A DNA stretch of 57,051 bases from an uncultured Candidatus Bathyarchaeia archaeon (GCA_964346575.1 CAYFVN010000234.1:1-57051); one strand, 5' to 3'; counted from the first letter of the stretch, positions 2,637-44,587 are shown. A program made the numbers and translations. Notes: generated by a model not told the origin, from the sequence alone.

Positions 2637-5600
2637 TTGCAAATGGATGAAGATGACTCATTTGAAAGTTATTTTCAACTAATTGAAAAGAAGTTTTCTG
2701 AAGTCTACTCTATAGCATCAAATGCAAGAGCTATAGGTTTGGACCCGGAGCTTGAACCTGAATCCAGAGTTACAAAGGATCTAGCTGAACGTGTTGAAAA
2801 GTCTGTGGGACCTGAAGGCGTTGCTGAGCGGATAAGAAGCTTAAGTAAGGTTATGCCTAGGGAGGAAGTTGCATTTAAGATATCTGAAGAGATAGTGGGG
2901 AGTAGTCTTCAAGAAAATAATATATCAACTGCAGATCAGGCGGTAAGAACCGCTCTAGCAATATTGGGTGAAGGAGTAACTGTAGCTCCAATTCAAGGAA
3001 TAGTCAAAATCGATGAGAAGATAAATCCAGATGGCACTCGACATTTATCTATATATTTTGCAGGGCCTATCCGATCAGCTGGAGGTACTGAGATGGCTTT
3101 GACGATAATAATAGCTGACTTTATCAGACAATTGCTAGGATTAGATCGTTATAAAGCTACTGAAGAGGAAGCCAAACGCTTTCTAGAAGAGTTAAGAATA
3201 TACGAAAGGGAGGTAGCTCGTTTTCAATATAAATTTCCTGATGATCTTGTGTATAATGCTATAATTCGTTTACCTGTCGAAGTTACAGGAGTTGAAACAA
3301 ATCATGTCGAGGTACCTACCTTCAGGAACCTAAAAAGAGTAGAAACTAATAGAGTTCGCGGAGGAGCTCTAAGGGTATTAAATGACGGCATCCTAGGGCG
3401 CGCTAATAAAGTTATAAAGATAATCGATAAACTTGGAATTTCTGGTTGGGAGTGGCTTAAAGATATAAGAGAAGGTTTTAAAAATTCAGAAGCTTCTGGG
3501 GATTCGATGTTCATGGAGGATGTCATAGCAGGTCGACCTGTATTCTCATTTCCATCTATGGAAAGGGGCTTCAGGCTAAGATATGGCCGATCTAGAGACA
3601 CCGGATTAGCAAGCTACGGCGTTCATCCTTCAACCATGAAGATATTGAGAGGGTTCATGGCTACAGGCACTCAAATACGACTTGAGAAACCCGGAAAGGC
3701 TGGAATAGTTGTACCTGTAGACACTATAGAACCGTCTATAATTAAACTTAAAGACGGCTCTACGGTCAGATCTGATGAAATATCCGAGAGAACAGCAAAA
3801 GAATCTATAGAGAAGATACTTTTCTTAGGAGACATTCTGGTAGGATTTGGTGAATTCATTGAGAACAATAAACATTTAGATCCTCCTGGATATGTTGAGG
3901 AATGGTGGGCTGAAGAGTTAAAATCTAAACTAGTCGGAGAAAACTCTAAAAGGATATGTAACGAAGCTGGAATCTCCGAAGACAGGTTAACACGGTTTTT
4001 AAGTGAACCATTCAAAACTAAACCAAACTTAGATGAGGCGTTCAAGTTATCTCAAATCCTCAGAATTCCTCTACATCCTTGCCATGTCTATTTCTGGGAT
4101 TTAGTTAAACCCCAAGAGATACTCCTACTAAGAGAGAAAATAGCAAACGCAGTAAACAAAGAGGATGATAAAAAAGAAATCCGTATCACTGAAGAGGAGA
4201 AAGTTAAAACACTACTGGAAAAGATGTGCGTACCACACAATTCTGAAGAAGGTTATTTAATATTTAAGAGAGAAGAAGCCTTAATTCTCAAAAAAATTTT
4301 AACTTCGTCTCCATTTAAATCTGAAGATGCAAATAATTACCAATCTTCCCTAGAGCTTTTAAAAGCTTTATCAGGAGTAGAAATCAGGGCAAAAGGAGGT
4401 ACCTTCATAGGTGCCCGTATGGGTAGACCTGAAAAGGCTAGACCAAGGGAAATGAGACCTCTAGTGCATGTACTATTTCCTATAGGATTGGCTGGAGGAT
4501 CGAGACGCAACCTCATTGAAGCTGCAAATTCAGAACGAATATCTACAGAAATGGTCAACCGATTCTGCTCCACATGCCAAACGGAGGAGTTCTCAAGTAT
4601 ATGTATAAAATGTGGATCAAAGACTCTGATAAAATATGTCTGCCCCACTTGCAGCTTCGAATCAATGGAAGATGGATTATGCCCAAAGTGCAGAGTTTCC
4701 TTATCCAGCCATTCTAGAAGATATTTAAATTTAAATAATTTTATCTCAATGGCACGTGAGCGTTTAGGGCTAGTTGATCTTCCTGATATTATTAAAGCAG
4801 TAAAAGGACTAACGAACGAGCTTAAGATTCCAGAGCCGTTGGAGAAGGGGATACTAAGATCAGTCTTAGGACTTTCTCTATTTAAAGATGGTACAATAAG
4901 ATTTGACTCTACAAACGCGGTTTTAAGCCATTTCAAACCTTCAGAGATTGGATTAAATATAGATGAAGCTTTATGGCTAGGATACACTCACGACTATAAA
5001 GGAGAACCTCTAAAAGATCCTGAGCAGATATGTGTCTTAAAACTTCAGGATATAATAGTCCCTAAGAGCTGTGGTGAGTATCTACTCAGAGTATCAAGAT
5101 TCATAGATGAACTTCTAGTAAAATTCTACAAGCTTCCGTCATTCTATAATGCTCATAAAAAAGAAGAATTATTGGGGCGACTAGTTGTTGGTTTATCCCC
5201 TCATACCTCTGTAGGAGTCATAGGTAGAATAATTGGATACTCAGATACTAACGTATGCTTTGCTCATCCAATTTGGCATGCCGCTAAGAGGAGGGATTGC
5301 GATGGGGATGAAGATAGTATATCTCTAGCTCTAGATATATTACTAAACTTCTCTAAAAAATATCTTCCATCGAAGATAGGCGGACTCATGGACGCCCCCT
5401 TATTAATGACTGTGAGGATATTACCTACAGAAGTGGCAAGGCAGGCATTCAACATAGAGGCCGTCTGGAGATTTCCACTGCAATTCTACGAGGCTTCTTT
5501 AAATGGTATGGACTCGAAGGATGTTGCTGAATATGTGGAACTGGTGTACCCTAGGTTATATACAACAAAACAGTTTGACAATATACCCTTCACCAACGAC

Positions 5601-11183: not shown

Positions 11184-14033
11184 ATGAAAACTGCCTTTTC
11201 ACTCTTACAGAGACCTATACTCAAGCGTCTTAGAGATGAGGGTATAATCAAGCCGAGTGATGTTCAAGAGATGGCGATACCTAAGATAATTCAAGGTAAG
11301 AATCTTCTTGTCGTAGCACCTACAGGAGTTGGAAAGACGTATGCTGCCATGCTTCCAATATTTAGTATGTATATATCCGCTAGAGCGTTAAGTAAGACTA
11401 AACCTATATCGATTCTATACATTACACCGTTAAGAGCTTTAAACAGAGATATATATAGACGTCTCATTTTATTAGGCAAGGCACTTGATATAAGAGTCGA
11501 TATTAGGCACGGAGACACTCCTAAGAGTGCTCGTTACACGCAGTCTATTTCTCCTCCTGAGATGCTTATAACGACCCCTGAAACTCTGCAGGCTATCCTC
11601 CCAGGTTCTCGAATGAGAGGGCATTTGAAGAACGTTATGTGGGTTATTGTCGATGAGGTTCATGAGTTAGCTTCTGATAAGAGGGGTTCCCAATTATCAT
11701 TAGCTTTGGAACGTCTCCGTAATCTAACTTACGTCGACTTTCAGAGAGTAGGTTTATCCGCTACAGTAGAATCACTGTTTCAGGTAGGTTGTTTCCTTGC
11801 AGGCGAGGGTAGACTCTTTGAAGTTATCAAATCACCAGAACTTAAAGATGTAGAAGTATATATAGAGTTTGTTAAGCCTACCGAAGTCGACAATTACAAA
11901 GCAAACCGATTTGCCATCCCTCCATCGAATGTAGCTAGGGCTCGTAGGATAATCGAATTAATATCCGAGCACAAGTCAACGTTAATTTTTACCAACACTA
12001 GAGAGCACGCGGAGTCTTTAGGCTCCCTGATACACGCTTTAAACATCGATCTTCCTGTACTTGTGCATCATGGATCATTATCTAAGGAGATCAGAGAAGA
12101 GGTTGAAAACAGGTTCCAGAAAGGCGAAATTAAAGCGATTGTATGCACATCATCCCTTGAGCTGGGCATAGATGTAGGATCAGTAGATTTTGTTCTTCAA
12201 TATATGTCTCCCCGAAGGTCTACTAGGCTTACTCAGAGGGTAGGGCGGAGCGGCCATACCTTAAAAGCACGATCTAAAGGCGTTATAATAGCCGGTTGGG
12301 CTGACGATATACTTGAATCGAAGGTTTTAGTTGAAAGGCTGGAAAAGGAGGATTTAGAGCGGACTCCGACGTATCCTAAACCATACGACGTTTTAGCTCA
12401 TCAGATCGTAGGTTTAACTTTAGACTTTAGGGGAGTCTATATTAACCAGATATATGAAACTATTAAAAAGGCTCATCCATATCGCGACCTTGCAATCGAA
12501 GAGTTGCTAGAGGTATTAGAGATTCTGGAACGTATAAAGTTGGTTAGAGTTGAAGGGGATATAGTAAGACCTCGAACTCCCAGATCATATAGATATTATT
12601 ACGAGAACCTATCCGTAATTCCAGATGTTAAGCGTTACATAGTATACGATTTCATAACAAAGAGACGTATAGGCACGTTGGATCAGGAGTTCGTAGCCCG
12701 TAGATGCCGATACGGTGTGGATATAATCATGTATGGATGTACTTGGAAGGTTCTAAGGGTAGACGATGACAATCTTAGACTGGATGTAGAACCTACTACG
12801 CCAAGCCTAGAGGCAATCCCTACCTGGGAAGGAGAGATGATTCCAGTAGAGTATTGCACAGCTATGAAAGTTGGAAAACTTAGGAGACTCATCGCTGAGG
12901 GCTGGGCTGCTAAGGGCCACTCTGAATTTCAAATATTGGAGGGGCTTTCAGAACAGGCTATTGAAAGGCTATCAGAGACTATAAGAGAGCATGCAAATTC
13001 ATACCCGTTGCCTACAGACAATAAAATCTTAATAGAACGCTTCGAGAACACAATGGTCGTCCATTCTTGTCTAGGAAATAGAGCTAATGAAACATTAGCT
13101 TTAGTCTTATCTACATTACTGAACTCGGAGTATGGAATAGTCGCCAGCTACCAAGTTGACCCTTATAGAATAGCCTTAACAACCCCCTATAAAATAGAGG
13201 CTGAGACTATCAGTAAACTTCTACGATCATTAACCCCTGAATCACTGCTTAAAATAGTCGAGAGTACTATAGAGGAGTCAAATCAATTTGCGTGGAGGCA
13301 TTGGCATATAGCTAAACGATTTGGAATAATCGAACGTAAGGCCGACTACCGCCTGAACAAAGCTAGAACACTTATCAGAATATTCAGAGATACTCCGGTG
13401 TCATCAGAAGCCAGGAAAGAGACGTTTATAGAGCAGTTAGACATAGAATCGTTAAGTGAGTTCTTGAAATCTTTGAGGGAGGAAAATATATCTATAAACA
13501 TCATGGAGGAAAGTATAGATGGATCCTGCACTCCGCTTGCAACTCCTATACTGGATAAGGTAGTGCCTCACGACCTACTTAGACCGGCATTACCTACCGG
13601 ATCTTTAATAGAGATCGTAAAACAGCGCATAGATAAAAGTTTAGTAAAGCTTGTATGCGTTCACAAAGGCGATTGGGAAACCTTAAAGATAGTTGAAAAA
13701 TCACCTGAGATTTTGAGATGTCCTAAATGTAAGTCGACATTGGTAGCTGTTGCAAACCCTAACGATAGAGACCTTTTAACAGTAATTAAGAGAAGGCTTA
13801 ATAGACGACGGTTAAGAAACGAGGAGTACGAGAAGTGGGAGCAAGCTTGGAAAAGCGCTAGTCTAGTTCAGGTATACGGTAAAAAGGCTGTTACAGCTTT
13901 AGCTGGAAGGGGTGTGGGTCCTAAGACTGCTGCGAGACTTCTAAGGAGGCCCTTACACAAAGAGGAGGAACTATATGTTGAAATATTAAAGGCTGAACGG
14001 CTCTACGCGAGGACACGAGCATTCTGGGATTAA
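11184..14033 (+). CDS. lhr: Lhr-type (aLhr2-like) SF2 DEVH-box helicase
   Basis: Motif I VVAPTGVGKT, motif II VDEVHE, motif VI QRVGRSGH. It has the long DEAD/H-associated C-terminal region with a Zn ribbon (CPKCKSTL) and an HhH-like GRGVGPKTAARLL. 949 aa. Confidence 0.85.
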   Translation: MKTAFSLLQRPILKRLRDEGIIKPSDVQEMAIPKIIQGKNLLVVAPTGVGKTYAAMLPIFSMYISARALSKTKPISILYITPLRALNRDIYRRLILLGKALDIRVDIRHGDTPKSARYTQSISPPEMLITTPETLQAILPGSRMRGHLKNVMWVIVDEVHELASDKRGSQLSLALERLRNLTYVDFQRVGLSATVESLFQVGCFLAGEGRLFEVIKSPELKDVEVYIEFVKPTEVDNYKANRFAIPPSNVARARRIIELISEHKSTLIFTNTREHAESLGSLIHALNIDLPVLVHHGSLSKEIREEVENRFQKGEIKAIVCTSSLELGIDVGSVDFVLQYMSPRRSTRLTQRVGRSGHTLKARSKGVIIAGWADDILESKVLVERLEKEDLERTPTYPKPYDVLAHQIVGLTLDFRGVYINQIYETIKKAHPYRDLAIEELLEVLEILERIKLVRVEGDIVRPRTPRSYRYYYENLSVIPDVKRYIVYDFITKRRIGTLDQEFVARRCRYGVDIIMYGCTWKVLRVDDDNLRLDVEPTTPSLEAIPTWEGEMIPVEYCTAMKVGKLRRLIAEGWAAKGHSEFQILEGLSEQAIERLSETIREHANSYPLPTDNKILIERFENTMVVHSCLGNRANETLALVLSTLLNSEYGIVASYQVDPYRIALTTPYKIEAETISKLLRSLTPESLLKIVESTIEESNQFAWRHWHIAKRFGIIERKADYRLNKARTLIRIFRDTPVSSEARKETFIEQLDIESLSEFLKSLREENISINIMEESIDGSCTPLATPILDKVVPHDLLRPALPTGSLIEIVKQRIDKSLVKLVCVHKGDWETLKIVEKSPEILRCPKCKSTLVAVANPNDRDLLTVIKRRLNRRRLRNEEYEKWEQAWKSASLVQVYGKKAVTALAGRGVGPKTAARLLRRPLHKEEELYVEILKAERLYARTRAFWD

Positions 14034-25534: not shown

Positions 25535-26665
25535 GTGTCTTTTATGGATTTAGGTTTTACCAGTATGAAGGCTTTAGTGGCAGAGTGTAAGCTTCACGAC
25601 AAGCCGTCGAGGCTGGAAGAAGTTGTGAGTATGGCTAGGACTATAGGGTATGATGTGGCTGCTAAAGTTATCCAGAGTAGGGGTAGTGTTCACCACTCCT
25701 ATACAATTGGAAGTGGTAAGCTTGAGGAAATTAAGCAGACAGTGAAAGAAACTGGGGTTGAGACGGTCATATTCTCCAATACGTTGCCTAGTTCTCACGT
25801 ATTTAAGGTTCAACGTAGGATCGGTAATGATGTGAAGGTTGTCGATAGGAACCTCCTTATACTTGAGTTGTTCGAAAGGAGGGCTATGACCGTTGAGGCT
25901 AAGCTTCAGATCCAGCTTGCCCGTCTTAAGTATACGTTCTCCTGGGGTAGGGAGTATTTAAAGCTTAAAGGGATTCTGGGAGAGCAGGTTGGATGGAGTG
26001 GACCTGGCGACTATCCCTTCAAGGAGTACGAGAAGGCTGCTCGTAGGAGGATAAGCCGTATAGTGAGTAGGCTTGAGGAGATAAGGTTTAAGAGGGATCT
26101 ACTCAGGCTTAGGAGGAGGGAGCTCGGATATCCGATAGTTGCCTTGGCTGGATATACACAGAGCGGCAAGACCACACTCTTTAACAGGCTTACCTCTGAA
26201 GAGAAGACTGTTGGATTAGGTCCCTTCACAACACTCTCCACATTCGCTCGACGCGTCGACTCTCTTAATGGAAGATCCTTCATACTGGTTGACTCGATAG
26301 GCTTCATAGAGGATATGCATCCTATCATAGTAGATGCCTTCACAGCCACCCTGAGGGAGATAGCTGACTCCAACCTGATACTTCTTTTCTTTGACGCCAG
26401 CGAAGATCCAGAAACTATGGCTAGGCACGTCAACTCCTCTGATACGATCCTTAGGAGAATAAGCGTCAGGGGTAAGATAATAGTATGCCTTAACAAGGTT
26501 GACCTAGTGGATGAAGAGCATCTTAAATTCGCCGTGGACATTGTAGCCAACCGCTTCTTAGGGTCACCTATAACCCTTTTTAGCTCCAAGACAGGAGCTA
26601 ACGTGGATTGTCTTATTATGGAGATCCAAAATGCCTTAAAGACGGCTACTCCACTGATGATGTGA
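25535..26665 (+). CDS. hflX: GTPase HflX
   Basis: HflX N-domain (IGSGKLEEIKQ...DRNLLILELFERRAMTVEAKLQIQLARLKY) and G domain (G1 GYTQSGKTTLFN, G3 DSIGF, G4 NKVD). The likely true start is ATG 25565 (MKALVAEC). Confidence 0.9.
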   Translation: MSFMDLGFTSMKALVAECKLHDKPSRLEEVVSMARTIGYDVAAKVIQSRGSVHHSYTIGSGKLEEIKQTVKETGVETVIFSNTLPSSHVFKVQRRIGNDVKVVDRNLLILELFERRAMTVEAKLQIQLARLKYTFSWGREYLKLKGILGEQVGWSGPGDYPFKEYEKAARRRISRIVSRLEEIRFKRDLLRLRRRELGYPIVALAGYTQSGKTTLFNRLTSEEKTVGLGPFTTLSTFARRVDSLNGRSFILVDSIGFIEDMHPIIVDAFTATLREIADSNLILLFFDASEDPETMARHVNSSDTILRRISVRGKIIVCLNKVDLVDEEHLKFAVDIVANRFLGSPITLFSSKTGANVDCLIMEIQNALKTATPLMM

Positions 26666-27104
26666 AACTACTTCAGCTTTGGCCGGATTTACTTCTCTTC
26701 AAAAGCAAGCTTATGGAAGATCCTTATAGCTCATGCTCTTTTTATTTCCTGAATAGTAAAGACTCAAGCGTTTCTTTAATCAGTTGTAAGTTATTGGATT
26801 ATTGCCTATTCGAACAATGTGTTCGCTTACAGAATATGATGATATTTAACCTCTCTCATAAAAGAATACAATCTGTAATCAAAGTGAATTTGTTTAGGCT
26901 CTCTGAAGATAATGCAAGAGTCAAGGAAATTATGTATTTCAGCAAAAACTTCGTCTACAGAGCTCAACACGTACTTACTCAATAAATATTTTTTAGTGCG
27001 CGCTTAACAGCATGGAAAATACAATGGATTCCTATAACTTAGAAAAAGAAACAACTCTGCAAATCTGTATTAGTTAAATATTTCTTGACTCTTCAAAAAT
27101 CGTA

Positions 27105-27250
27105 TGGTGGGCCGGCCCGGATTTGAACCGGGGACCCTTCAGCCCTCCTCTTCTTTGATGAGGGTTTCTGCGTCTCCTGGGTTGGCTACTTGTCAGGCAG
27201 ATGTCCTAATTATTCCATCATTTAGGATGTCCAAACTAGACGACCGGCCC
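27105..27250 (-). tRNA. tRNA-Val (anticodon GAC) with three introns (D-loop, anticodon loop, variable region); CCA encoded
   Basis: Manual fold: acceptor GGGCCGG/CCGGCCC, A, CCA. D stem GTCT/GGAC encloses 31 nt, implying a ~21-nt insert at 27208..27228. Anticodon stem TCTGC/GCAGA with loop CU-GAC-A and a ~18-nt insert at 27173..27190. A ~29-nt insert at 27138..27166 precedes the variable loop GGGTC. T arm CCCGG-TTCAAAT-CCGGG. TATA-like TTAATAAT lies 18-25 nt upstream (27268..27275). Confidence 0.8.
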
Positions 27251-27425
27251 TCTCTCCTTCAAAGCGTATTATTAACATAATATACAGGTATATTAAATCT
27301 AAGGTGGAGTTGAATAGATAGAGCGCACTAAACTTCCAGAGATTTTAAAATCCAGATAAATGAGGTTTCAGCCTTTTTAATATGAGTATTAAAGCTATTT
27401 ATTTATAAGGGTTTGTTGAGACAGG

Positions 27426-27614
27426 TCATATTATGCGGATTCTGTTGACTTTCTTATTATGCCATGAGTATGACCTGATTCTTTTTGATTCTCCTAAGCC
27501 GCATGCTGCGCATTGCTTCTTTCTTATATGATATGAATGTCTGCCACATCTTCTGCATATTATATGCGTCTTCGATCTACTCCTCTTACCGAAAGATGGA
27601 GTCCCTTTGCCCAT
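27426..27614 (-). CDS. rpl37e: 50S ribosomal protein L37e
   Basis: [39 protein letters not shown], the diagnostic L37e zinc ribbon. Confidence 0.95.
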
Positions 27615-27643
27615 TTGACATTCCCCATAACGACTTACTCTTT

Positions 27644-27877
27644 TTATTCTTTGCTTGGAGGGGGTGATACTAGAACTATATTATCTCCCCTTACTATGAT
27701 GGTACCCAGTTTTCTTGTATCGTTGTTGGAGGTTATTTCCTCGGCCTCTTCTAGGACTAGATTCATGTGCTGATCGAAGCTGAAGAGCTCTCCCCTAATG
27801 CTTCTGCCTCCTTTAAGTTCTACTAAGACTATTCTTCCAAGGATGTCTCCGAAGGCCCTGGTTGCTACGTCTGACAT
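27644..27877 (-). CDS. Sm-like (LSm/SmAP) RNA-binding protein
   Basis: Sm1 motif [31 protein letters not shown] and Sm2 motif [12 protein letters not shown]. Sits directly upstream of L37e, the conserved archaeal LSm-L37e operon. Confidence 0.9.
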
Positions 27878-36895: not shown

Positions 36896-37969
36896 TTGGT
36901 TAATGTGCCTGGTGACATGCTTGAAGGAGGCGGGCAGATTATAAGGACGTCCATAGCTCTCGCAGCCCTACTGGGGGAGGAGATTGATATATCCAATGTT
37001 AGGGGTAAACGCTCACCTTCAGGGTTGAAGGCTCAGCATTTGACCGGTGTGAAGGCGGTTGCATCCGTATCTGGGGCTGAGATTGAAGGTCTTAGGATAG
37101 GCTCAACAAGACTCGTATTTAAACCTCGCATGAGGAGGGGGGGCATCTTACGATTCGATGTAGGAACTGCTGGAAGCGTATCCCTAGTGTTACAGGCGTT
37201 GATGCCAGCAGCTGCTTTCGCCTCTGAACCTCTGCGGGTCATTATAACAGGGGGAACCGATGTCCGATGGAGCCCCACTATAGATTACATGCGTCTCGTA
37301 GCCCTGCCAGTGCTGGCGAAGATGGGCTACAAAGGTGATATCATAGTTGAGAAGAGAGGCCATTACCCCAGGGGCGGAGGATACGTAGCCTTTACAGCCA
37401 CACCCGTACGAGTGTTGAGTCCTATAACCCTGGAGGAGAGAGGTATAGTAAAGAGGGTAGGCGGCTGTAGCCACTGCGTCAAGCTTCCAAGATATGTAGC
37501 TGATAGGCAAGCTGAAGCGGCGTTCCAAACCCTTAAGGAGGCGGGTATCCGAGACATTCAAGTTGATGTGGAATGGTACCCTTCTGGTAGTGATCCTCAC
37601 ATAGGCCCTGGCAGCGGGATAACCCTGCACGCTGTAACCTCCGCTAATGCTATGCTTGGTGCAGACGCCCTCGGAGAGAAGGGGAAACCTGCTGAGGAGG
37701 TTGGAGGGGAAGCCGCCTCTAAACTTCTGGAAGAGCTGGACACGGGTATGGTCTTGGACCGTCACATGGGAGACATGATAATACCCTACCTTGCTGTTGC
37801 GGACGGAAGGTCGAGAGTTACAGTTTCGCAGCTAACTCTGCATACGATGACAAATATCAAGGTTACAGAGATGATCTCAGGCGTCTCCTTCAGGGTTGAG
37901 GGAGAAATAGGAAGACCTGGCAGTGTAGAAGTGGAAGGAATAGGCCTAGTTACACCGTATTCAGCATAA
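36896..37969 (+). CDS. rtcA: RNA 3'-terminal phosphate cyclase
   Basis: LEGGGQIIRTSIALAALLGEEIDISNVRGKRSPSGLKAQHL and the catalytic-His region VLDRHMGDMIIPYL. Confidence 0.9.
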   Translation: MVNVPGDMLEGGGQIIRTSIALAALLGEEIDISNVRGKRSPSGLKAQHLTGVKAVASVSGAEIEGLRIGSTRLVFKPRMRRGGILRFDVGTAGSVSLVLQALMPAAAFASEPLRVIITGGTDVRWSPTIDYMRLVALPVLAKMGYKGDIIVEKRGHYPRGGGYVAFTATPVRVLSPITLEERGIVKRVGGCSHCVKLPRYVADRQAEAAFQTLKEAGIRDIQVDVEWYPSGSDPHIGPGSGITLHAVTSANAMLGADALGEKGKPAEEVGGEAASKLLEELDTGMVLDRHMGDMIIPYLAVADGRSRVTVSQLTLHTMTNIKVTEMISGVSFRVEGEIGRPGSVEVEGIGLVTPYSA

Positions 37970-37981
37970 ATTGGGGTAAGC

Positions 37982-38251
37982 TCAGCTGCCGCTACGTGAT
38001 TTTCTACTCCTCCATAGAACCTCACCTGTGAGGGAGTCCATCACCTCATGAACTCTATGGAATGGTATCGGAGAATCCTCCTCCCCTAGGATTACAAACC
38101 AGCCTTTCCTCACATGGCTTACCTCTGAGAGAAGTATCTCCCTAATATCGTTGGGAGCTCCCCTATGTACGTATCGAATAGTGAATCGGTTCTTTTCGCC
38201 CTCAGTCCACTTCAATCTGTTTAATATATCTCTAAGCGGATGCTTCTTCAA
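37982..38251 (-). CDS. UPF0248 / DUF504 family protein
   Basis: HPLRDILNRLKWTEGE...FTIRYVHRGAPNDIREI...IPFHRVHEV fits the small archaeal DUF504 pattern. Confidence 0.65.
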   Translation of the reverse strand: MKKHPLRDILNRLKWTEGEKNRFTIRYVHRGAPNDIREILLSEVSHVRKGWFVILGEEDSPIPFHRVHEVMDSLTGEVLWRSRKSRSGS

Positions 38252-38410
38252 TCACAACCACCAACCTAACAGGGAAGTTAACAGCCACCGGATTAAATAA
38301 TGAAAATAAAAATACAACTTTATTGTGGGATGACCAACGGCATATTTAATAGTTTGCTGATGAAACTCCTTTAAGGACCGCCTGAATAACAGATTTGGGG
38401 ATACGATGAG

Positions 38411-39019
38411 ATGAGTAGAGAAGTATCATATATGCCGGGCGCCACTACTCTAGGCTTGGTCTGTAAAGACGGCGTAGTGCTCGCCTCTGAAAGGAGAGTA
38501 TCCTACGGCTACTTCATTATGAGCAAAACGGGTAAGAAGATCTTCAAGATAACCGATAGGATAGGGGCCGCGTCCGCCGGCTTGGTAGGAGACATGCAAG
38601 TCCAAGTTCGAGAAGTAGTCGCTTACCTTAACATTTACTCCTACGAGGCGGGTAAGGTTCCATCCGTAAGGAACACGGCTAAACTTATGAGTAACCTACT
38701 CTTCCGTAGAAGGTTTTCTCCCTATCTAACCCAGACCATAGTGGGTGGTGTAGACGACAAGGGACCGAGCATATATGTTTTAGATCCCCTAGGCTCAGTT
38801 ATAGAGGACAAGTACGCCTCAGTAGGCTCAGGCGCTGAGATCGCAGTAGGGATATTGGAATCCGATTACAGAGACGGTCTAAAAATAGATGAGACTGTGA
38901 ACTTGGCTAGGAAGGCTGTTAAATCAGCCGTCTCCAGAGACATCGGCAGCGGCAATGGCATAGATGTGCTCATGATAACACTTGACGGCATTCGAGAGGA
39001 GTTCACACCTCTCCAATAA
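38411..39019 (+). CDS. psmB: proteasome subunit beta (paralog 2, short propeptide)
   Basis: MPGA/TTLGLVCKDGVVLASERR active-site Thr, plus GSGAEIAVGILE. Confidence 0.9.
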   Translation: MSREVSYMPGATTLGLVCKDGVVLASERRVSYGYFIMSKTGKKIFKITDRIGAASAGLVGDMQVQVREVVAYLNIYSYEAGKVPSVRNTAKLMSNLLFRRRFSPYLTQTIVGGVDDKGPSIYVLDPLGSVIEDKYASVGSGAEIAVGILESDYRDGLKIDETVNLARKAVKSAVSRDIGSGNGIDVLMITLDGIREEFTPLQ

Positions 39020-39116
39020 TATTTTCTCCAAATGAAACCCCAAAGAAGAGTGCGATACAAGCATCGAAGAAAAAGATCAGATCTTATCCGATAAGGAAGA
39101 TAAGAATAGACAAGAA

Positions 39117-40151
39117 ATGAAACGAAACGATGATGAAGCTGTGAGAAGTAGCGTTGAGATTCAGGATAAGCCTAAGTTACTTTCAAGAGTAAAGCGGTCA
39201 GACCCGGACAATTTATTCCGTCAGATCCTGAAGAGACAGAAGTATCAGCTCGTAGGCCGCCACTCCGCAGTTAAGAAGTGTCGTTGGCTGCATAAGAGCC
39301 TAACCGAAGACCTCCACTGCTATAAGCAGGAGTTCTACGGCGTAGAGAGTCACCGATGCCTCCAGATGGCACCATGCCTCAAATGTAATTTCCAATGTCT
39401 CTTCTGTTGGAGGACCCATCCAAAGGATTTAGGGGTTAAGGATACAACTAGAATCGAAGGCTGGGAAGACCCAGGAAGCATTGTTGATGAGTCTGTGAAG
39501 GCGCAGAGAAGGATACTATCTGGATATAAATCTCACGTCCTAGACGGGAAGCTCGAGGAATCCAAGTATTTAGAAGCGCTGAACCCTCGACATGCGGCTA
39601 TAAGCCTCGATGGAGAGACCACGTTATACCCTATGATAGGCGGGCTTATAAGTGAGTATTCTGGTAGAGGATTCACCACGTTCCTAGTTACCAATGGCAG
39701 TAGCCCGAAAACCTTGAACAATCTGGAAGAGGAGCCCACCCAGCTCTACCTGTCCTTATACGCGCCTGACGAGGAAACCTTCAAGGCCTTATGTAAACCC
39801 CTGAACATGAAGTTCTGGAAAAGCATTAGGGAGTCACTGATATCCATAAGGAACTTTAAATCTCCGACGGTTTTGAGGTTGACACTGGTTAAAGGCTTCA
39901 ACATGAAGAATCCCGAAGGATACGTCAAACTTCTAAGGGATGCAGAGCCTACGTATATAGAGGCTAAAGCCTACATGTACGTAGGATACTCTAGGACACG
40001 GCTTACATACTCCGCGATGCCAAGCTACAATGAGGTGGAGGAGTTCGCTGAAACTTTAACTGAAGAACTTGGATACCGAACCATAGCCTCGTCCGAGGAC
40101 AGTAGAGTCGTACTGTTAAGCAGGCTTAAAACACCTAAGAGACTAAGATAG
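39117..40151 (+). CDS. taw1: tRNA 4-demethylwyosine synthase (radical SAM, Taw1/TYW1)
   Basis: GRHSAVKKCRWLHKSL...YKQEFYGVESHRCLQMAP...CNFQCLFCWR (radical-SAM cluster plus the auxiliary-cluster Cys). Confidence 0.9.
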   Translation: MKRNDDEAVRSSVEIQDKPKLLSRVKRSDPDNLFRQILKRQKYQLVGRHSAVKKCRWLHKSLTEDLHCYKQEFYGVESHRCLQMAPCLKCNFQCLFCWRTHPKDLGVKDTTRIEGWEDPGSIVDESVKAQRRILSGYKSHVLDGKLEESKYLEALNPRHAAISLDGETTLYPMIGGLISEYSGRGFTTFLVTNGSSPKTLNNLEEEPTQLYLSLYAPDEETFKALCKPLNMKFWKSIRESLISIRNFKSPTVLRLTLVKGFNMKNPEGYVKLLRDAEPTYIEAKAYMYVGYSRTRLTYSAMPSYNEVEEFAETLTEELGYRTIASSEDSRVVLLSRLKTPKRLR

Positions 40152-40350
40152 AGAAGTACACGCTATAATTAGGGGGAGATCCAACCCAAGAATCCTGGAG
40201 GGTTAAACGTACCTTAAAAACGGCTTTAATTCGCTATCTAGTCTATGAAGGCAGCTTAACCAGTTTGTTTTAATCTTAGCTTGAGCGATTTAAGTAGAGG
40301 ATTAAAGGGTTAATCTATACGTACGCCTCCTGTTTGGAGGAGGGCTAGGA

Positions 40351-41049
40351 ATGTTGTTTAAAGGGGATTTGGAGAGGATTCAGGAGGATTTAGCTGGCTA
40401 CGACTCCGCTAGGGAGAAGCTTCTCGCCGTATCTCGTAATGCTACTAGACTAGCCGGCAGGGCCATGCTTCAGGTGCATAAGATGCAGCTTCGGGAGGCT
40501 GAGGAGACCCTGAAGAGAATTGAAGAGACTATAAGTGAGATGGAGAAAGGCGTGAATGCCTTTCCGGAGCTGAGCCATCACGCGCAAGCCTTAGTAGCTT
40601 ACCAGGAGTATGTGGAGGCAAAAGCGCTATATACCCTTTCTACTGAGGGCAGGCTATGCACATTAGAGGAGGTTAAGGTACCCTCAAACCAGTACCTCTT
40701 GGGGTTGCTGGATCTCGTTGGGGAGCTTAGAAGGCTGTCCCTTGAGTGTCTGAAGCGTGGTGACCCTGAGTCGGCTGAGGATAAGATGAATGTTATGGAG
40801 GAGATCTACGAGTCCTTAATGTCTTTAGAACATACCTCTATGATACAGAATTTCCGGCGTAAGATGGATACGGCCAGGAGGTTAATAGAGGCTACCAGGG
40901 GTGATGTGGTGACCGGTCTAAGAAGATGGAGCCTTGAGAAGGCTATAAACGGTTTAAGCCTTTCTATGAGCCGTCGAGGAAGGGGGGGGAGAGACGGAGT
41001 TGATGTTCTCAACCGTGAAGGCCAAGAGAGCTCAGCTAATGATGGCTGA
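40351..41049 (+). CDS. translin family protein
   Basis: All-helical 232 aa with YDSAREKLLAVSRNATRLAGRAM..., YQEYVEAKALY and YLLGLLDLVGELRR, the translin/TRAX signature. The Arg/Gly-rich tail overlaps nfi by 50 nt. Confidence 0.7.
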   Translation: MLFKGDLERIQEDLAGYDSAREKLLAVSRNATRLAGRAMLQVHKMQLREAEETLKRIEETISEMEKGVNAFPELSHHAQALVAYQEYVEAKALYTLSTEGRLCTLEEVKVPSNQYLLGLLDLVGELRRLSLECLKRGDPESAEDKMNVMEEIYESLMSLEHTSMIQNFRRKMDTARRLIEATRGDVVTGLRRWSLEKAINGLSLSMSRRGRGGRDGVDVLNREGQESSANDG

Positions 41050-41620
41050 GCTTGTGGAGGAGAAACCCATCATAGTTGAGGAGGTCAAGAGTATTGCGGG
41101 GGTGGACGTGGCTTACCGCGATGGATTAGCTGTGTCCGCCGCGGTCCTGGTTTCAGCTCAAAGCTTAACTTTGTTGGAATCCTCATCGGTCCGCTTGAAG
41201 GTTAAGGTTCCTTATCTTCCGGGTCTTCTTGGCTTCAGAGAAGCACCTATAATGGCCGGGGCTGTTATGCGCCTAAGGAATAGGCCTGACGTTGTATTGG
41301 TGGACGGTCACGGGTTGGCCCATCCTAGAAGGTTCGGATCAGCATGCCATACAGGGATAATCTTGGACAGGCCTACCGTAGGGGTGGCTAAATCCAGGCT
41401 ATACGGTTTAGAGTCGGGGAGAATACTGGCAGACGGCTCAGGAGAACCTATAGCTCGGATCGTCAGGGATCGTACAGGTAAATGCTACTACGTCAGTATA
41501 GGCCATAAAGCTACTCTCCGGGATGCAGTGGGGGTGGTTGTGATGTGCATGGGTGATCATGGTCCTGAACCTTCGAGGCTGGCTCATTTAAAGGCTAGGG
41601 AGGCTTTCAGGGATCATTGA
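41000..41620 (+). CDS. nfi: endonuclease V
   Basis: IAGVDVAY, PYLPGLLGFREAP, VLVDGHGLAHPRRFGSACH and VGVAKS. Confidence 0.9.
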   Translation: MMFSTVKAKRAQLMMAELVEEKPIIVEEVKSIAGVDVAYRDGLAVSAAVLVSAQSLTLLESSSVRLKVKVPYLPGLLGFREAPIMAGAVMRLRNRPDVVLVDGHGLAHPRRFGSACHTGIILDRPTVGVAKSRLYGLESGRILADGSGEPIARIVRDRTGKCYYVSIGHKATLRDAVGVVVMCMGDHGPEPSRLAHLKAREAFRDH

Positions 41621-43894: not shown

Positions 43895-44081
43895 GGGCCC
43901 GTAGCTCAGCCAGACCCAACGTCCACTCCTACGGGCTGAATGGTGGGCGTGGATCCTGAAGAGGTAGAGCAGCGGACTTCGAAGCCTGACGAGGGGAGGC
44001 TGAAGCTCTTAACCCGAAAGGACGGTGTTGAGGCATCGCCCTGGGGAGAGGTCCGGGGTTCGAATCCCCGCGAGCCCGCCA
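43895..44081 (+). tRNA. tRNA-Lys (anticodon CUU, best manual fold) with three introns; CCA encoded
   Basis: 5' GGGCCCGTAGCTCAGCCAG ... GGTAGAGC (D arm split by a ~49-nt insert, 43914..43962). Anticodon arm GCGG|G-CTCTTAA-CCCGA is split by a ~29-nt insert (43976..44004). A ~31-nt insert (44018..44048) precedes AGGTC. T arm CGGGG-TTCGAAT-CCCCG, then CGAGCCC-G-CCA. Two non-WC pairs (C5.A68, G27.A43) lower confidence in the isotype. Confidence 0.7.
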
Positions 44082-44245
44082 AGACCTAAGTGAGCGCATT
44101 ATAACTGTTACCATAAATAAACATATTTTTCGATAGTTCACCTGAAGCATTCTTTTAAATATTCGACACAAATCCGGTGATAATTAAGGTTTAAAAGAGT
44201 TTTCTGCAGTTAACTCAATTAACTATTGATGTTCATGTATTCAGA

Positions 44246-44285
44246 AAAACGTTCAAATGTTCATTAAAACGTTCAAATGTTCAAA
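44246..44285. repeat. tandem 20-bp direct repeat (AAAACGTTCAAATGTTCA-NN) x2, part of a cluster of five GTTCA pentamers
   Basis: Copies at 44246..44265 and 44266..44285 are 18/20 identical. GTTCA occurs at 44231, 44251, 44259, 44271 and 44279. Located about 165 bp 3' of tRNA-Lys. Confidence 0.8.
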
Positions 44286-44587
44286 TGATCAATAGATAAA
44301 GGATACATATTTGGATTCTATTATTTCAACTCTACTCTAAATGCTCGTATTTACTTATAATATACCTCTCATTATTGAGGTCAAAAAATTACTAAACTAG
44401 ATCATGAAATAAAATATTTAAGCGTCCTTAAATCGCCTTCACATAAGCTAAACAGATTTTGCATATCGGTTTTATGCCTTCCTTGAAATAAATTCTATCA
44501 AGCTTTCCTCGATGTTACTACTGGTTATTTTTAATTTATTATTGGTTAAAAGCGTGAGTTAATTTAATTAAGTCATAGATACATCGA

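Follow-up and report, generated by a model that had tools for sequence, protein, structure and literature searches.

Comparison with related sequences confirms the tRNA-Val(GAC) gene predicted here as a genuine gene with three introns. It lies in the window, by which we mean the whole stretch of DNA analysed, 57,051 nt from an uncultured Candidatus Bathyarchaeia archaeon. The pre-tRNA gene occupies positions 27250..27105 on the minus strand and measures 146 nt for a mature tRNA of about 78 nt, with inserts of 21, 18 and 29 nt in the D loop (19/20), the anticodon loop (37/38) and the variable loop (44/45). An earlier note on this DNA, which named no strand, had claimed a tRNA-Val gene with three introns of these sizes, two of them outside the canonical site 37/38, and its reading agrees with the spliced cloverleaf, the orthologues and the bulge-helix-bulge (BHB) motifs described below. 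We are highly confident that the gene is functional, a tRNA-Val(GAC) gene of Bathyarchaeia from which three BHB-type introns would be spliced by proteins. The exons alone form a canonical cloverleaf, as is the case for introns of the BHB/EndA type, and with introns at 19/20, 37/38 and 44/45 the gene belongs to those with multiple and partly non-canonical introns. It is not a split or permuted tRNA gene, as the four exons are colinear within 146 nt of one strand.

The gene begins with GGGCCGG and ends with CCGGCCC-A-CCA, the CCA being encoded (27107..27105). A perfect T arm (CCCGG-UUCAAAU-CCGGG) is located directly 5' of the 3' acceptor strand, and the anticodon GAC is found at 27194..27192. 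The predicted parts of the locus are:

27105..27250, minus strand: whole pre-tRNA-Val(GAC) gene, from the sequence and the ARAGORN call on the spliced product
27231..27250, minus strand: exon 1 (GGGCCGGTCGTCTAGTTTGG), acceptor 5' strand, D-stem 5' strand and D loop to G19; equals the first 20 nt of the intronless gene L123
27210..27230, minus strand: intron 1 (ACATCCTAAATGATGGAATAA), 21 nt, D loop 19/20, from the BHB scan and the intronless orthologues
27192..27209, minus strand: exon 2, end of the D loop, D-stem 3' strand, position 26, anticodon-stem 5' strand and loop to C36
27174..27191, minus strand: intron 2, 18 nt, anticodon loop, in the BHB register cut between 36 and 37
27166..27173, minus strand: exon 3, A37 and C38, anticodon-stem 3' strand GCAGA, and A44
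27137..27165, minus strand: intron 3 (ACCCTCATCAAAGAAGAGGAGGGCTGAAG), 29 nt, variable loop 44/45, from the BHB scan and the orthologues
27105..27136, minus strand: exon 4, G45-C48, T arm (CCCGG UUCAAAU CCGGG), acceptor 3' strand, A73 and CCA
27267..27285, minus strand: candidate archaeal TATA box, AT-rich (TATATTAT, TTAATAATA), 17-35 nt upstream of the gene
27095..27099, minus strand: candidate oligo-T terminator of five T, 6 nt past the CCA

Two small ORFs are located upstream on the same strand (27426..27877), the tRNA gene lying 175 nt downstream of them. By eye, the product of 27877..27644 (77 aa) looks like an Sm-like (LSm) protein and that of 27614..27426 (62 aa) like ribosomal protein L37e.

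Standard search tools do not report this gene. ARAGORN found zero tRNAs in the whole 57-kb window, and with its intron option (anticodon-intron mode) it found no tRNA on the raw locus. There was no Rfam match at the gathering threshold in the window and, at E<=10, no relevant match near the tRNA-Val site. When the three inserts were removed as placed in the earlier note, the remaining 78-nt sequence was called tRNA-Val(GAC) by ARAGORN, with four of four stems paired and the encoded CCA. Because deleting segments until a cloverleaf appears proves little alone, the case for tRNA-Val rests on its orthologues. For a second tRNA gene in the window, described below, brute-force removal of BHB-like segments followed by ARAGORN yielded a 'tRNA' in 118,887 of 690,895 combinations, with many identities; this procedure was dropped as evidence, being far too permissive.

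Metagenome contigs were scanned for the 3' exon, which gave at least 120 loci (numbered with the prefix L), and for most of them the extent of a tRNA gene could be determined. Two intronless genes, L123 and L114/L173, each match the spliced window gene at all but one of the 78 positions. With the exact junctions modelled, the spliced product is thus 77/78 identical to L123 and L114, and the stem pairing worked out in the earlier note survives. Both intronless genes are called tRNA-Val by ARAGORN and by Rfam. The Rfam tRNA score falls with the number of introns, from 66 bits for genes with none to 44–46 bits for those with two and below the threshold for those with three, and ARAGORN finds no tRNA in the contigs L002, L155 and L162, whose tRNA-Val genes have introns. 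Standard tRNA finders miss the window gene and probably many others in Bathyarchaeia, an abundant class in sediments and hot springs. As a consequence, metagenome-assembled genomes of this class may score as lacking tRNAs and appear less complete than they really are, and tRNA counts for Bathyarchaeia are likely underestimated.

The genomic location of the gene is conserved as well. In L119/L124, whose FttA is 80% identical to that of the window, the gene order is the same: FKBP-type isomerase, UPF0179 protein, proteasome subunit, FttA, SepF, PUA protein and tRNA. There, the tRNA-Val(GAC) gene is intronless and shows one compensatory pair swap in the anticodon stem. The same neighbourhood is found in L002/L115 (FttA 65%) and in L155 (57%), where introns are present at 37/38 and 44/45 only; their positions are shared with the window and their sequences are different. 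Across the versions with no, two and three introns, the exons are near-identical and the introns resemble each other only at the ends that form the BHB motif. The exons are conserved, the introns are free to vary, and their presence or absence differs among orthologues.

The window sequence is most likely derived from a metagenome assembly, so that an artefact of assembly or binning, for instance a chimeric join of tRNA fragments, has to be considered. This can practically be excluded because an independent contig from another assembly, L162 (JABAOF010050186.1), repeats the three-intron gene within flanks that are 99.6–99.8% identical; in the tRNA gene itself, the only change is a substitution in the intron-2 loop. 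In addition, two-intron versions are present in more than 10 independent metagenome contigs. The alignment of L162 to the window consists of two blocks and skips approximately 30 nt (about 26622..26653) near the end of the HflX gene, which suggests a small indel between strains.

The junctions were placed by a BHB scan, in which each possible pair of cut sites was scored for bulge-helix-bulge geometry: on each strand, from 5' to 3', a flanking helix, four central bases, a 3-nt bulge cut after its second base, and a flanking helix. This geometry was checked by hand on the canonical 37/38 intron of the tRNA-Ser gene in L007/L008. For intron 1, the highest-scoring register joins G19 to U20 and forms a strict hBHBh' motif (4/4/4 bp) with an outer helix of 4 bp, the central helix GUUU/GAAU, the inner helix CAUC/GAUG and the bulges GGA and AAU. 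Its removal leaves the D loop AGUUUGGUUA, exactly as in L123. The inner helix CAUC/GAUG is replaced by CACC/GGUG in L166, a compensatory change.

Intron 2 has a central helix CCUG/CAGG on positions 31–34 (C31-G34/CAGG) and a 5' bulge of 3 nt. It is strict only with a shifted outer helix of 2 bp and with a mismatch beside the inner helix; with the alternative outer helix of four anticodon-stem pairs the 3' bulge becomes 5 nt. This motif is a relaxed BHB. A canonical 37/38 BHB, with the central helix on 32–35, was also tried and rejected, as it reaches at most one of four pairs. The central helix on 31–34 recurs in 12 further homologues, with U-A changed to U·G in some. By the 37/38 convention the intron extends over 27190..27173, the boundaries already given in the earlier note, and in the BHB register over 27191..27174; both cuts yield the identical product here and in all other genes except L002, in which the BHB register gives G37.

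Intron 3 is best cut after A44, with the central helix GCAG/CUGA (three of four pairs, one mismatch), the bulges AAA and AGG, an inner helix CCCUC/GAGGG (5 bp) and an outer helix GAC/GUC (3 bp). These cut sites produce the variable loop AGGUC and match the intronless genes; the variable base before GGTC falls within the intron. The register is constant in twelve further homologues wherever intron 3 is present (L166 is without it). In L002 the central helix is perfect over 4 bp, and the inner helices of homologues read CGCC/GGCG, CGCU/AGCG, CGC/GCG or CG/CG instead of CCCUC/GAGGG. Altogether, the best BHB register is at the same tRNA positions in 13 intron-bearing members of the family, one of which, L162, almost duplicates the window gene. 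The variable loop is AGGUC in 10 of these 13; the exceptions are L155 and L127, which deviate at position 44, and L002, with G37.

The earlier note had placed intron 1 at 27228..27208, that is 2 nt downstream, and intron 3 at 27166..27138, off by 1 nt. Despite a valid cloverleaf, both placements were rejected. They score poorly as BHB motifs, and splicing there yields a D loop and a position 44 unlike those of the intronless genes. The hBHBh' motifs it had asked for at each junction are thus obtained in strict form for intron 1, whereas intron 2 is relaxed and intron 3 has three of four central pairs. For the same reason, its argument that an enzyme for relaxed BHB motifs is needed is only partly borne out, intron 1 being strict and introns 2 and 3 deviating.

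Since the cut sites of each intron are known independently from the orthologues, chance can be judged at one fixed pair. In shuffled sequences, a BHB of the observed quality occurs at such a pair with a frequency of <1e-6 for intron 1, 1.4e-3 for intron 2 and 7.5e-6 for intron 3, and a motif as good as that of intron 1 was seen zero times among 927,600 shuffled position pairs. The BHB conformers lie 4–6 kcal/mol above the local minimum free energy (MFE) structures and were not recovered by minimum-energy folding of the locus. Folding of the precursor as a whole is only moderately more stable than that of shuffled sequences (z = -2.27).

That the BHB folds are not minimum-energy structures would fit a decaying pseudogene, a one-time tRNA-Val gene in which insertions have built up and from which no working tRNA is produced any more. 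So would the failure of ARAGORN and Rfam to make a call at the locus, and the fact that L166, with the same D-loop intron, has 6 extra nt and may be defective. Nevertheless, we consider a pseudogene very unlikely, since 77 of 78 exon positions agree with intact intronless genes whereas the introns vary freely in sequence, each insertion sits exactly in a BHB motif, and compensatory changes are found in the intronic helices. Moreover, the gene occupies a syntenic site at which relatives keep tRNA-Val(GAC), and its CCA end, the AT-rich stretch upstream and the T-run downstream are all intact.

One may also ask if all three inserts are true introns. An insert such as the 21-nt one in the D loop could be retained as an expansion, or two inserts could be removed as one unit. 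Indeed, local MFE folding gives the D region no BHB but a continuous 7-bp helix that includes a 4x4 internal loop, and one spurious BHB candidate of 66 nt exists within the gene. However, removal of these 66 nt would delete the anticodon, and none of the three inserts has a better BHB than the one in the D loop, with its outer, central and inner helices of 4 bp each and predicted cuts that restore exactly the D loop of L123. To our knowledge, no tRNA has a D loop of 31 nt. Fewer than three introns therefore appear highly improbable, and we keep to the reading of a functional gene with three separate introns.

If the established archaeal pathway applies, a 146-nt transcript would be made from the AT-rich promoter 17–35 nt upstream and would end at the T-run 6 nt past the CCA. 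EndA would then cleave each 3-nt bulge behind its second base and generate 2',3'-cyclic phosphate and 5'-OH termini, and the RtcB ligase would join the four exons. The motif of intron 3 uses G39-G42, which is the 3' strand of the anticodon stem, and its outer helix is built from the last two bases of intron 2 together with C38. It is incompatible both with the anticodon stem and with the outer helix of intron 2, which argues that the RNA would refold between the cuts and that splicing probably is stepwise. The locus may thus illustrate how one pre-tRNA could refold to present overlapping BHB motifs in turn.

The ORFs of at least 100 aa in the window include neither EndA nor RtcB. When all collected loci were searched by phmmer with an approximate M. 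jannaschii EndA query, there were matches only in L130, L076 and L186, which hold different, intronless tRNA genes and belong to a lineage other than that of the window. Elsewhere in the window there is a run of RNA-related genes at 36896..41620 on the plus strand:

36896..37969, plus strand: RtcA RNA 3'-terminal phosphate cyclase
within the run 36896..41620, plus strand: proteasome subunit
39117..40151, plus strand: radical-SAM enzyme with wyosine-formation domain (Taw1/TYW1-like)
40351..41049, plus strand: translin-family protein
41000..41620, plus strand: endonuclease V

RtcA makes the 2',3'-cyclic phosphate ends that are used in the RtcB ligation pathway.

The window further encodes the large subunit of PolD, SepF, HflX, NrdD, Lhr and FttA/aCPSF1. 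In a scan with FttA, covering one genome per species, the closest sequences come from Bathyarchaeia MAGs, namely L001 with 82% identity, followed by others with 65–56%. PolD and SepF, named in the earlier note as present in this genome, are both found in the window, and both are normal for the class Bathyarchaeia. The surprise then expressed at three-intron tRNAs in a different lineage is not supported in this form: Bathyarchaeia belong to the kingdom Thermoproteati, i.e. to TACK, and (αβ)2 EndA as well as multi-intron tRNAs had already been reported widely. The (αβ)2 endonuclease with its specificity loop has been reported across TACK and Asgard (PMC5829648, PMC7714728). Thermoproteales are the classic case of tRNA genes with as many as three introns (PMC4033280, PMC4090602), and multiple-intron tRNAs are known also from other Crenarchaeota, Nanoarchaeum, Methanopyrus, Methanothermobacter, Korarchaeum and ARMAN (PMC4033280, PMC4090602; for Nanoarchaeum, Methanopyrus, Korarchaeum and ARMAN see PMC4033280). 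In the Asgard Atabeyarchaeia and Freyarchaeia, 92–95% of the tRNA genes have introns and more than half have several (PMC11291895). Because the host is within TACK and multi-intron tRNAs are known outside Thermoproteales, the argument from an unexpected lineage is weak. A three-intron tRNA in Bathyarchaeia is rather to be expected in kind, as multi-intron genes and (αβ)2 EndA are so widely reported. A full-text literature search found no paper on tRNA introns in Bathyarchaeia. The gene adds a lineage, not a mechanism.

The closest parallel in architecture is with Thermoproteales (Pyrobaculum, Thermofilum, Caldivirga; Sugahara et al. 2008 via PMC4033280, PMC4090602). Their tRNA genes, like the window gene, contain up to three short BHB-flanked introns, combine canonical with non-canonical positions including the D arm and the variable region, show a fast turnover between close relatives and are missed by standard tRNA finders. 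The window differs in that its host is a member of Bathyarchaeia. Furthermore, the sites 19/20 and 44/45 are not among the examples given in PMC4090602, which names the neighbouring 20/21 and 45/46. With Atabeyarchaeia and Freyarchaeia (PMC11291895) the window shares a position outside the classical Crenarchaeota and intron-rich tRNA genes, often with non-canonical introns and several per gene; its host, however, is in another superphylum, and here two genes of one window are seen. Intron 2 can be compared with the canonical 37/38 intron of strict hBHBh' type (Marck & Grosjean 2003, as cited in PMC7714728). It also lies in the anticodon loop, gives the standard product and has a central helix of 4 bp and a 5' bulge of 3 nt. 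Unlike in that canonical type, the central helix is on 31–34 instead of 32–35, and the 3' bulge has 5 nt if the full anticodon stem is kept. The tRNA-Ser gene of the related contig L007/L008, read by hand, has the standard canonical geometry, unlike intron 2.

A second disrupted tRNA gene in the window, missed by ARAGORN and Rfam, was recognised from its T arm and 3' acceptor strand at 44049..44081 (+):

43895..44081, plus strand: second disrupted tRNA gene, 187 nt, probably a three-intron tRNA-Lys(CUU)
43912..43961, plus strand: candidate D-loop intron, 50 nt, the removal of which leaves the typical GCUCAGCCAGGUAGAGC
43976..44004, plus strand: 30/31 intron, 29 nt, with a perfect hBHBh' motif
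44018..44048, plus strand: probable third intron at about 43/44, 31 nt, less certain

Spliced in this way, the 77-mer forms a tRNA-Lys(CUU) cloverleaf with two mismatches, C5·A68 and G27·A43. The gene probably encodes a tRNA-Lys(CUU) with three introns; its decoding is less secure than that of tRNA-Val because no orthologue was found. A further gene of this kind in the window, and a Bathyarchaeia host within TACK, for which (αβ)2 EndA has been reported, both favour the reading of tRNA-Val as a spliced gene. In Nanoarchaeum equitans and Staphylothermus, tRNA-Lys(CUU) is split into two genes at 30/31 (PMC4090602). The second gene of the window, probably the same isoacceptor, is interrupted at the same position; here, in contrast, the parts are contiguous and would be joined in cis by way of an intron, not in trans.

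Intron 3 of tRNA-Val (27137..27165, minus strand) and the 30/31 intron of tRNA-Lys (43976..44004, plus strand) are both 29 nt long and share a 3' module GA.GAGG.GAGG.CTGAA, which reads GAAGAGGAG-GGCTGAA in the former and GACGAGGGGAGGCTGAA in the latter; GGGCTGAA occurs also within the D-loop intron of tRNA-Lys. Pairwise comparison of the six window introns gave one nominal match, as good as which were 5 of 500 shuffles, and this is not significant after 15 comparisons. The shared module may be a hint of intron transposition. If real, the similarity would represent transposition of introns between tRNA genes at a young stage. Downstream of the tRNA-Lys gene, the AT-rich intergenic region has a short direct repeat at 44230..44290 (+), with AAAACGTTCAAATGTTCA present twice and an extra AATGTTCAAATGA.

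The distribution of the introns over the relatives indicates that, as judged from these sequences, they are gained and lost on a short time-scale. Intron 1 is absent from L123, L114, L119 and L002 and, among the matches listed, is confined to the strain cluster of the window and L166; the D-loop intron looks young. Introns 2 and 3 are shared with relatives down to 57–65% FttA identity and yet are missing from the relative with 80%. Being common to distant relatives but absent from the closest, they point to both gain and loss. The 'heavy intron gain' of the earlier note thus agrees with the D-loop intron only, the other two pointing to loss too. The orthologues with no, two and three introns at one syntenic locus constitute a natural series for the study of intron gain and loss. 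In L166 (JABAOF010103102.1) the tRNA gene ends near 1940 (+) and has a homologous D-loop intron of 23 nt. It contains an unexplained 6 nt in the region of the anticodon loop (CTGACACGGACACGCAGA), too short for a BHB intron, which look like a small duplication or the remnant of an intron; the gene may be defective.

It is tempting to speculate that this clade of Bathyarchaeia is in a phase of active gain of tRNA introns and that several introns are present in most or all of its tRNA genes. In favour are the observations that both tRNA genes of the window appear to have three introns, that the D-loop intron is restricted in its distribution and that a module is shared between two 29-nt introns. 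We regard this as a tentative and rather doubtful proposal. If true, it would make the clade a third heavily intron-laden archaeal lineage beside Thermoproteales and Atabeyarchaeia/Freyarchaeia.

Further long tRNA-like genes were found in two related Bathyarchaeia contigs, L003 (136 nt, minus strand, reverse-complement coordinates 3643..3778) and L006 (207 nt, minus strand, reverse-complement coordinates 11920..12126), both with intact acceptor and T arms. They probably carry several introns. ARAGORN found no tRNA in either, and stricter BHB filters did not lead to a convincing decoding of these two genes. At 13 further loci matching the 3' exon, no 5' acceptor strand was located in the 400 nt upstream; the contig may end there, or the acceptor stem of the gene may itself be interrupted. 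Finally, several tRNA genes share the T arm and acceptor with the window gene and have inserts elsewhere (L134, L176, L104/L107/L188/L193, L138, L165, L084, L086 and L174/L177). The sites are directly after acceptor position 7 in L134 and L176, after the D arm in L174/L177 and within the anticodon stem in the L104 group.
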